Assembly: GCA_963706715.1 (NCBI GenBank)
Contig: CAVPNI010000001.1
Coordinates: forward strand, 96,001 to 160,000
Length of the DNA: 64,000 nucleotides
Direction of reading: 5' to 3'
Source: an uncultured Verrucomicrobiae bacterium
GTDB taxonomy: Bacteria > Verrucomicrobiota > Verrucomicrobiia > Chthoniobacterales > Xiphinematobacteraceae
Position 1 is the stretch's first letter. The number at the start of each line of letters is the position of its first letter. The notes under the pieces were generated by a model that was given only the letters and a program-made list of their open reading frames with translations, had not been told where the DNA came from and did not search any database. Of the stretch, positions 53,212 to 54,857 are shown piece by piece. The position numbers and the translations under genes were made by a program.

Positions 53212-53467
53212 TTTTTAGTTATCAGTAACTTGTAAGGTGTGCTCAGGCCAAAGCTGCCGGTCCGTTGACATATTGTAGACAAATCTACCCAGCGGGAAAC
53301 TTTGCGTTCTCCAAAAAATACGTGTGCAGCGGACCGGAGCCAATCTACGATGCGGGCTTTTTACGCTCCATAGAAACGCCGGCCATTTTACAGCTTGACC
53401 TGAGCAACCTTACCCTACTCAGTTAGTGGACTAAAATACGAGTCCTTTGGACTTGATGGCTACGAAC
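53212..53467. ncRNA. Candidate IS110 bridge/guide RNA region (transcribed strand unknown)
   Basis: Long stem gtaaggtgtgctcaggccaaagctg / cagcttgacctgagcaaccttac enclosing ccggtccg/cggaccgg and further hairpins. Confidence 0.65.
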
Positions 53468-53471
53468 CACC

Positions 53472-54857
53472 AACTACCCACTAACTGAATGGATTAAATA
53501 TTGGGGACCAGGGAATAACCATGTTTTGCTGCGAGTTTAGAAAGAAGGCGTTTTTGGGAGAGAGCAACCTGCTCATGGTAAACTTCGAGGCCCCTTTCAA
53601 CGTAGGGGAAGCCGTGTACCATAACGCGCCAAAAAAGGGCGGCCAACTTACGAGCCAGGGCTTTATTAGCAACTAATCCACCGCGCCGTGCACGCAATCG
53701 TCGATAGAAACCGCCCAGAGCCTTGTTTACACTGCGGGCAAGAGAACGGGCTACCACACAGAAAATGCGACCTGCTCGATTGCGACTTCTAGAACATCTA
53801 GCTTGCCGCTTACCACTTTGCTTGCTGCCAGGAGCTAATCCAAGCCAAGCAGTAAAATGCTTTTCACTTTTCCAGCAGGTCAAATCGGTACCTACTTCAC
53901 CAATCAACTCGAGTAGACCATAGTCGGTAATACCGGGTAAGAGCGTCGGATCCTTTCCCTTACAAAGAGTCATAAGTAAACGGTGGAGATCTTTAATTAG
54001 AGGAGCATTGCAGCCTCCAATCCTTTTTGTTGCGCTGGGAGTTGAGGGAGGCTGAAGGCCTTGAACACTTTCCTGTAATAGCTCTTCTATGGCTTGGTCA
54101 CATTGCCTAACGAGCTCCTGGCAAAAATGCCATGCATCATAAGCTTGTCTAAGGGCAAAGAGATGCTGTTTGGTCCAAGTCCCACGCAAACTCTCAATTA
54201 CTCGATGGCGCTTTGCCCTCTGAATCTGGAGGCTACAAAGAGAAAGCAACACTTGAGGATCACGCTCGCCCTTTAGAATGGCTTCAATCACCTTAAGTCC
54301 ACTAACTCCGGAAAGTGAACGAATTACGTCATGAAACTTGATATTCATGCGTTCCAAGGCCTTCTGCATATGCTGTACATGGCTAGCTGCTGCTCTGATA
54401 TGATCGCTTCGCAAACGCAAATAATCCTGCAACTGCCGAATATTGGCCTGAGGTACAAAGCCACCTTTTAATAGGCCATGAGCATGCAAAGTTGCTATCC
54501 ATTGGCAGTCGGCCATATCCGTCTTCCTTCCAGGTACATTGCGTACGTACTTACCATTAACCACTTTTATCTCTATGCCGCTCTCCTCTAAAATCTCATA
54601 CAAGGCTATCCAATAAACTCCAGTAGCTTCCATTGCCACCGTACACACCTCTTCTTGAAGTAGCCAATCGCGCAGGGCGTGCAACTGACTGGTAAAGGTT
54701 CCAAAAACCTTAGGTGCTCCTCCGGCAATAGAAACGTGCATGTGCTCACTGTACGCTCCATAGAAACGCCGGCCATTTTACAGCTTGACCTGAGCAACCT
54801 TACCCTACTCAGTTAGTGGACTAAAATACGAGTCCTTTGGACTTGATGGCTACGAAC
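53472..54857 (-). mobile_element. IS110-family element, internally deleted copy C (1386 bp)
   Basis: Same 200-bp deletion as copy A; core lies 7 bp from the core of copy B. Confidence 0.92.
53494..54741 (-). pseudogene. IS110 recombinase lacking the N-terminal GIDV segment
   Basis: As copy A. Confidence 0.85.

Follow-up and report, generated by a model that had tools for sequence, protein, structure and literature searches.

An ISPpu9-like IS110 element with an AG core at the joints of a tandem heptamer repeat, and a predicted bridge RNA in its left end

Two copies of an IS110 element (B and C) stand side by side in a window of 64,000 nucleotides from an uncultured Verrucomicrobiae bacterium, parted by a short spacer that resembles a heptamer repeat of the host, and a third copy (A) lies against another tract of the same repeat. 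This arrangement raises the question of where the element ends and the host begins, and of what brings it to the heptamers. The first-pass annotation had taken AAC as the core, placed the cores of B and C 7 bp apart and read the element's ends as imitations of the heptamer. Having followed these proposals through the source genome (G000, 3.04 Mb in four contigs, labelled C1 to C4), we hold with good confidence to another explanation, namely a bridge-recombinase element of the IS110 group, ISPpu9-like and with an AG core, that would be guided into the 10-mer TRGTTCGTAG (recombinase strand) at heptamer joints. The features on which this explanation rests are collected in table 1.

Table 1. Coordinates of the element copies, their parts and the associated host repeats in the window
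Feature	Position	Strand	Remarks
Copy A, deleted form	16444..17817	-	1374 bp; cores 16442-16443, 17818-17819
Copy B, full-length IS110	51886..53459	-	1574 bp between cores 51884-51885 and 53460-53461
Copy C, deleted form	53476..54849	-	1374 bp; cores 53474-53475, 54850-54851
IS110 recombinase, copy B	51904..53211	-	435 aa; PF01548 + PF02371
Recombinase motifs, copy B			GIDVG (13), MEATG (57), KTDMAD (93), GLAPGSKQSG (321)
Predicted bridge-RNA region, left end of B	53212..53420	-	fold z -5.8
Left target guide ATCGTAG (predicted)	53345..53351	-	6/7 to target TTCGTAG
Left donor guide TGGGTAG (predicted)	53285..53291	-	7/7 to the element's right end
Segment of B missing in A, C and four other copies	53162..53361	-	200 bp; both guides, start codon, first 16 codons
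Sub-terminal inverted repeat, left end	53419..53429	-	11 bp; 30 bp inside the left end
Short hairpin before left inverted repeat	53441-53453
Partner inverted repeat, right end	51888..51898	-
Host heptamer-repeat spacer between B and C	53460..53475	+	B core CT 53460-53461, 12 target bases, C core CT 53474-53475
Heptamer tract left of copy A	16426..16443	+	resumes in phase at 17820 with A set aside
Inverted partner tract of the site-A tract	16228-16246
hisD (histidinol dehydrogenase)	17818..19107	-	TAG stop (window 17818-17820) contains AG core of site A
IS-free element of 206 bp carrying heptamer tracts in inverted orientation	27722..27927		one tract 27733-27755; ends like DDE element 40088-41482

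Genome-wide, 11 copies carry both ends of the element, five of them intact and six with the same 200-bp deletion, and the window holds three of them (A, B and C). The recombinase of copy B scores above the cut-offs of both profiles, with 72 bits for PF01548 and 41 bits for PF02371. The DEDD residues D15, E58, D95 and D98 and the serine S329 were located within its four motifs, and we take these residues to have the catalytic roles. At 435 aa, the protein falls within the definition of the IS110 family, which combines an N-terminal PF01548 and a C-terminal PF02371 domain in 300-460 aa (PMC11208160). The left end measures 248 bp versus 18 bp for the right end, which is the layout of the IS110 group; the IS1111 layout, with the RNA in a long right end, does not fit a right end of 18 bp and guides upstream of the gene. 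The sub-terminal repeat departs from the group, being 11 bp instead of 2-3 bp, and the boxes of ISPpu9, which is filed in the IS110 group, show the same longer repeat (PMC12288879). The best named plasmid matches to the transposase were generic IS110 transposases at less than 60%. The window also contains another DDE insertion sequence in two copies (954-2072 and 58525-59643).

Alignment of the junctions revealed CTAC on the + strand at both junctions in 11/11 copies; at the right junction the next bases are GAAC[T/C]A, likewise in all 11. The two bases before the left CTAC are AA in eight copies and TT, CT and CC in the other three. AAC is therefore found at both junctions in 8/11 copies and is missing at one junction in 3/11, so that it cannot be the core. 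The core is AG on the recombinase strand (CT on the + strand); the crossover could, from this genome alone, fall anywhere in GTAG, the choice of AG resting on the homologues and on ISPpu9. A short core at both junctions combined with a sequence-specific target is what characterizes IS110 elements, and this element shows both. The same boundaries alter the circle junction that had been predicted, GGCTACG-AAC-TACCCA, which includes target bases: in a corrected joint the two ends would meet at one CT core with no AAC between them. Neither a circle joint nor an empty-site joint was seen in the low-depth contigs of related DNA from four of eight sequencing runs. In one homologous locus (L025), the right end downstream of the transposase runs straight into a second left end, the two sharing one AG, which is the form expected of a circle junction or of a tandem with zero spacer.

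With the CTAC-based reading, and as given by the IS-free paralogues of the site, B and C have a core-to-core distance of 14 bp. The B/C site is a member of a dispersed repeat, and its IS-free paralogues give the empty state. One of them, with both flanks, lies on the minus strand of C1 near 421735; it fits the CTAC-based reading with one mismatch, located in the tract, and shows the units AACTACG, AACCACC, AACTACT and then AACTATG. This paralogue is 14 bp longer than the empty site reconstructed in the first-pass annotation, a 17-nt sequence based on a 7-bp distance that has no copy in the genome, and a second IS-free paralogue, on C4 near 542249, agrees with it. The 18-mer was located at 53460-53477 and, in the opposite orientation, at 27738-27755, as described, and copy A indeed lies at the end of a heptamer tract starting at 16426. 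The match to 27738-27755 is nothing special, though, for the 18-mer has 25 copies in the genome. The host repeat accounts for 16 of its 18 bases, and the remaining two (53476-53477) belong to the right end of C, yet are identical to the bases expected from the target. The verbatim match thus follows from the junction being host repeat, and no mimicry is needed. Additionally, two single soil contigs of depth ~3, from two runs, contain further junctions compatible with the same boundary and target: one starts at 53474, preceded by TT, and the other holds the left end, then the same repeat and then other DNA. These junctions lend slight support to the proposed boundary and target.

All 11 copies are inserted at TRGTTCGTAG. 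Because this 10-mer runs across the joint of two heptamer units, the insertions keep the heptamer phase. It occurs at 126 sites genome-wide (69 + 57) versus about 5.5 expected (2.0 + 3.5), and 11 of these sites are filled; starts of two-unit heptamers number 132 versus 4.9 expected under an order-3 Markov model. The longer tracts of the repeat lie mostly (126 of 143) outside ORFs of at least 200 aa, which make up 73% of the genome, and 30 of 47 close tract pairs share the same inverted arrangement. Between the inverted tracts of the four widest pairs, no four-helix-bundle or other small genes were found. Enrichment of the heptamers extends to the congener G001 (33 vs 5 in the control), with three other congeners at control level, and a search of all four, G001 included, did not find this transposase; for these reasons the repeat appears to be independent of this IS.

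The view of heptamer tracts as preferred landing pads survives in part. All the copies sit at the 10-mer and 9/11 lie inside tracts of at least three units, but no preference for tracts was detected beyond the 10-mer itself (filled sites 9/11, free sites 72/115 in such tracts; Fisher p 0.33). The flanks of the genomic copies, proposed as a check, agree on one 10-mer in 11/11 cases and not on AAC. As to the filling of neighbouring units into tandem arrays, tracts often hold two 10-mers 7, 14 or 21 bp apart, and among the 32 close same-strand pairs at least one is filled at both members in 21% of random 11-site draws (P ~0.2). The B/C pair does comprise independent insertions; it is the only filled tandem pair observed, at chance level (P ~0.21), and no longer array exists. 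A special process for the tandem pair is hence not needed. At site A, the AG core lies within the TAG stop codon of hisD, and the insertion leaves the reading frame intact for that reason. Sites whose TAG closes an open frame of at least 120 codons number 3/11 among the filled and 7/115 among the free.

The cause of landing at heptamers, missed in the first-pass reading, is most probably the guide region in the left end. We found 605 relatives and kept 80; together with seven further loci and copy B, and with one locus dropped for having no upstream DNA (L068), these gave 87 aligned rows. A conserved scaffold upstream of the gene carries two 7-mers that end in AG in 87/87 and 86/87 rows, in a search that favoured AG endings. 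After the removal of duplicates, 68 distinct guide pairs remained, 61 of them with sufficient flanking sequence at both ends. A match of the first 7-mer to the element's own left flank, at 6/7 positions or better, was present in 55/61 (permuted mean 10.7, maximum 18), one of which (L022) is a self-match artefact that leaves 54 usable, and the second matched its own right end to the same degree in 50/61 (permuted mean 17.5, maximum 28), figures whose significance is overstated by permutation since the homologues are mutually related and not independent. The crossed controls gave 7 and 11 of 61. By covariation and predicted fold, the left target and left donor guides known from IS110 elements are thus both recognizable, and the left end very probably encodes a structured RNA that carries them and would be expressed in the cell. 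A guide together with the 10-mer would explain both the phase and the targeting of the repeat.

This reading implies that the left-end RNA would hold two 7-nt guides, the first directed at the target and the second at the right end of the element itself, and that recombination at the AG dinucleotide would place the element into TRGTTCGTAG. As the 10-mer is the two-unit joint of an abundant, mostly intergenic repeat family, insertions would fall in heptamer phase, and paired 10-mers 7, 14 or 21 bp apart would sometimes bring independent insertions side by side, as with B and C. Against the completeness of the guide model stand the mismatch of the target guide at -7, the TRG that the guide does not explain and right-arm guides that are unreadable here. 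The preference of targets for T at -7 over the guide's A was not significant (p 0.18), and a longer target guide, considered as an explanation of TRG at -10 to -8, was rejected, the RNA having no match there. On the right arm, a putative target guide matched in 10/45 homologues versus 4.9 permuted (p 0.018, uncorrected for four tests), though not in this element, and a putative donor guide in 6/45 versus 6.8 permuted; weak or absent guides agree with the variability of the sequence on that side of the core. A scan for sigma-70 promoters across 53150-53560 returned none.

Four other explanations were weighed against guided insertion at AG. The original proposal, in which an AAC core, cores 7 bp apart and two heptamer-shaped IS ends make the junctions mimic the repeat, can draw on the eight copies with AAC on both sides and on the heptameric 18-mer; the three copies with a junction devoid of AAC and the AG endings of guides across 87 elements speak against it, and it is refuted by the empty sites, the 7-bp form having no copy where the form 14 bp longer exists free of the IS. 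We consider it practically untenable. That B and C arose through tandem duplication or an assembly error is suggested by their adjacency and ~99.5% likeness, and the assembly at the locus is spanned by no read, nor by any contig among those from four sequencing runs (low depth, related DNA). The two copies nonetheless differ by the 200-bp deletion and six SNPs, which group C with the other deleted copies, and their spacer matches the IS-free paralogues. Such an origin is hard to believe, and we read B and C, on the strength of these differences, as independent insertions.

The remaining two explanations concern how the site is recognized. If the heptamer were targeted for its resemblance to the element's own right end and read by the donor loop, as in the half-match insertion reported for IS621 (10.64898/2026.08.31.748434), the 7-8 identities among the last 10 positions of the right end and the 11 targets would be accounted for. 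The same targets, however, fit the target guide at 6/7 positions and the donor guide at 5/7, and a donor-guide match to the left flank occurs in 7/61 homologues, which is the chance level; this makes half-match targeting very improbable. It is also unlikely that specificity is confined to the 6-nt match TCGTAG, with the longer consensus and the link to the repeat arising from selection against genic insertions. The location of 126/143 tracts outside long ORFs, where insertions are tolerated, favours such a filter, but of the 254 intergenic TCGTAG sites that are free, no more than 92 carry TRG at -10 to -8, so that its presence at 11/11 filled sites has p ~1e-5, with ORFs serving as a proxy for genes. 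Guided insertion into the full 10-mer remains the preferred reading.

The ends of the element were examined for their likeness to the target. An inverted copy of the right end lies ~27-35 nt into the left end with a hairpin before it, both here and in most homologues, and the best 9-mer of this sub-terminal repeat has at least 7 matches in 40/45 elements. Across the 45 elements (of 87) with both junctions called, donor and target agree at 2-9 of 10 positions, mostly 5-7, which places this element at the upper end of the range but inside it. The supposed imitation of the heptamer by both ends therefore reduces to one: what looked like a heptamer at the left end is, by the revised boundaries, target DNA, and a weaker likeness to the target is confined to the right end, as is common for donors in this clade. 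Outside the guide, TRG is invariant at -10 to -8 in the 11 targets, and the donor carries TAG there. This triplet is shared by donor and target in 25/45 elements versus 15.7 permuted, though 23 of the 25 are TCA/TCA in related elements and 20/45 disagree; in ISPpu9, the bases of the B box at these positions differ from one target row in the published alignment available (PMC12288879). We tentatively propose, as a possibility well short of established, that in this clade the recombinase, using mainly left-arm guides, may recognize in a PAM-like manner three non-guide bases at -10 to -8 of donor and target, and that in this lineage the usual TCA may have given way to TAG/TRG in the two inverted-repeat copies and in the target alongside the switch to a tandem heptamer. 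If true, this would be a real co-adaptation of an IS end to a host repeat.

The six deleted copies share, besides the 200-bp deletion, three diagnostic SNPs, and D15 is also lost. Because they spread after losing guides and start codon, they probably move in trans, using the RNA and protein of intact copies. A second deletion, of 268 bp, is common to two of the six, with an insertion at the same position, although these two occupy different sites, and this doubly deleted derivative seems, judging from its structure, to have moved again with cargo. The insertion measures 245 bp in one of them and 1648 bp in the other, where a 1395-bp element is nested (C1:781275 and C4:373054). A derivative with neither guides nor a start codon thus outnumbers the intact element, 6 versus 5.

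Comparison with described systems, as far as the available parts of the sources go, places the element among the ISPpu9-like IS110s, a likeness based on the AG core and the layout of the ends. In Pseudomonas putida KT2440, ISPpu9 and MITEPpu9 (PMC12288879; PMC1525189) likewise belong to the IS110 group, have an AG core, insert in intergenic repeats and include non-autonomous derivatives and side-by-side units. ISPpu9 recombines at AG in REPs, has an A box of 43 bp that contains an inverted repeat, has a B box of 16 bp, and forms circles at AG (PMC12288879). Here, core, hairpin and left inverted repeat also span 43 nt, ending as in ISPpu9 in an inverted copy of a short right box; the left box of one homologue (L093) ends almost like the A box. 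The likeness is one of core and layout; in the published ISPpu9-like set, transposase identity to ISPpu9 is >87% (PMC12288879). Unlike the REP palindrome, the target here is a non-palindromic heptamer joint; unlike MITEPpu9, the MITE-like partner of ISPpu9, the derivative is a 1374-bp internal deletion; and B and C keep their 14-bp core spacing, in contrast to the single AG shared at the ISPpu9-ssr9 junction. With IS621 (PMC11208160) it shares the two Pfam domains, the RNA in a long left end, repeats as targets and separate target and donor guides that include the 2-bp core. It differs in the core (CT in IS621, AG here on the recombinase strand), in left guides of 7 instead of 9 nt with right guides not readable, and in an asymmetric inverted repeat of 11 instead of 2-3 bp. 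As in ISPpu10 (10.64898/2026.03.19.712850), there are signs of specificity beyond guide pairing and of action in trans, but the extra determinant of ISPpu10 is a target stem-loop, whereas here it would be a short linear motif beside the guide match.

The concept of IS110 elements inserting into intergenic repeats, with tandem copies and non-autonomous partners, is already in print: repeat targeting and the guide scheme (PMC11208160; PMC1525189), and tandem modules, an absence of target immunity and short elements devoid of the 5' region (10.64898/2026.08.14.744561), have been described. A literature search by titles and the beginnings of abstracts, with most subscription papers outside its scope, found no IS110 with a heptamer target. 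What is new, as far as these sequences indicate, is the type of target for an ISPpu9-like IS110, a natural case of a bridge recombinase re-aimed from a REP palindrome to a tandem heptamer, with 11 insertions, IS-free sites and readable guides. For bridge-recombinase engineering, it offers a clade with an AG core, short left guides and possibly an extra 3-nt determinant. Flanks of eight homologues (L021, L026-L028, L030, L033, L034 and L036) resemble palindromic intergenic repeats of different kinds, to which the guide of the respective homologue fits, and the clade appears to have been re-aimed repeatedly at host repeats.

Other mobile sequences accompany the heptamers. The multi-copy 1395-bp DDE element (40088-41482; DDE_5), presumably IS701-like, has inverted ends and 4-bp duplications at several copies. 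Besides the 206-bp element of table 1, heptamer-bearing elements of 160-360 bp with DDE-like ends occur at C2:330025, C3:220878, C3:668749, C4:331008 and C4:415011. DDE-like ends are followed by at least two heptamer-like units in 29/108 cases, and this motif closes 34/143 tracts; some of the tracts may belong to MITEs of the 1395-bp element. Another dispersed family of ~90 bp is found at 16260-16349, 40004-40086, 50732-50823, 51697-51788 and 59650-59741, and near 40.1 kb the DDE element interrupts one of its copies. An Rfam scan of the window returned only a tRNA, and at 42822-44150 an rRNA adenine dimethylase is fused to a NUDIX domain.
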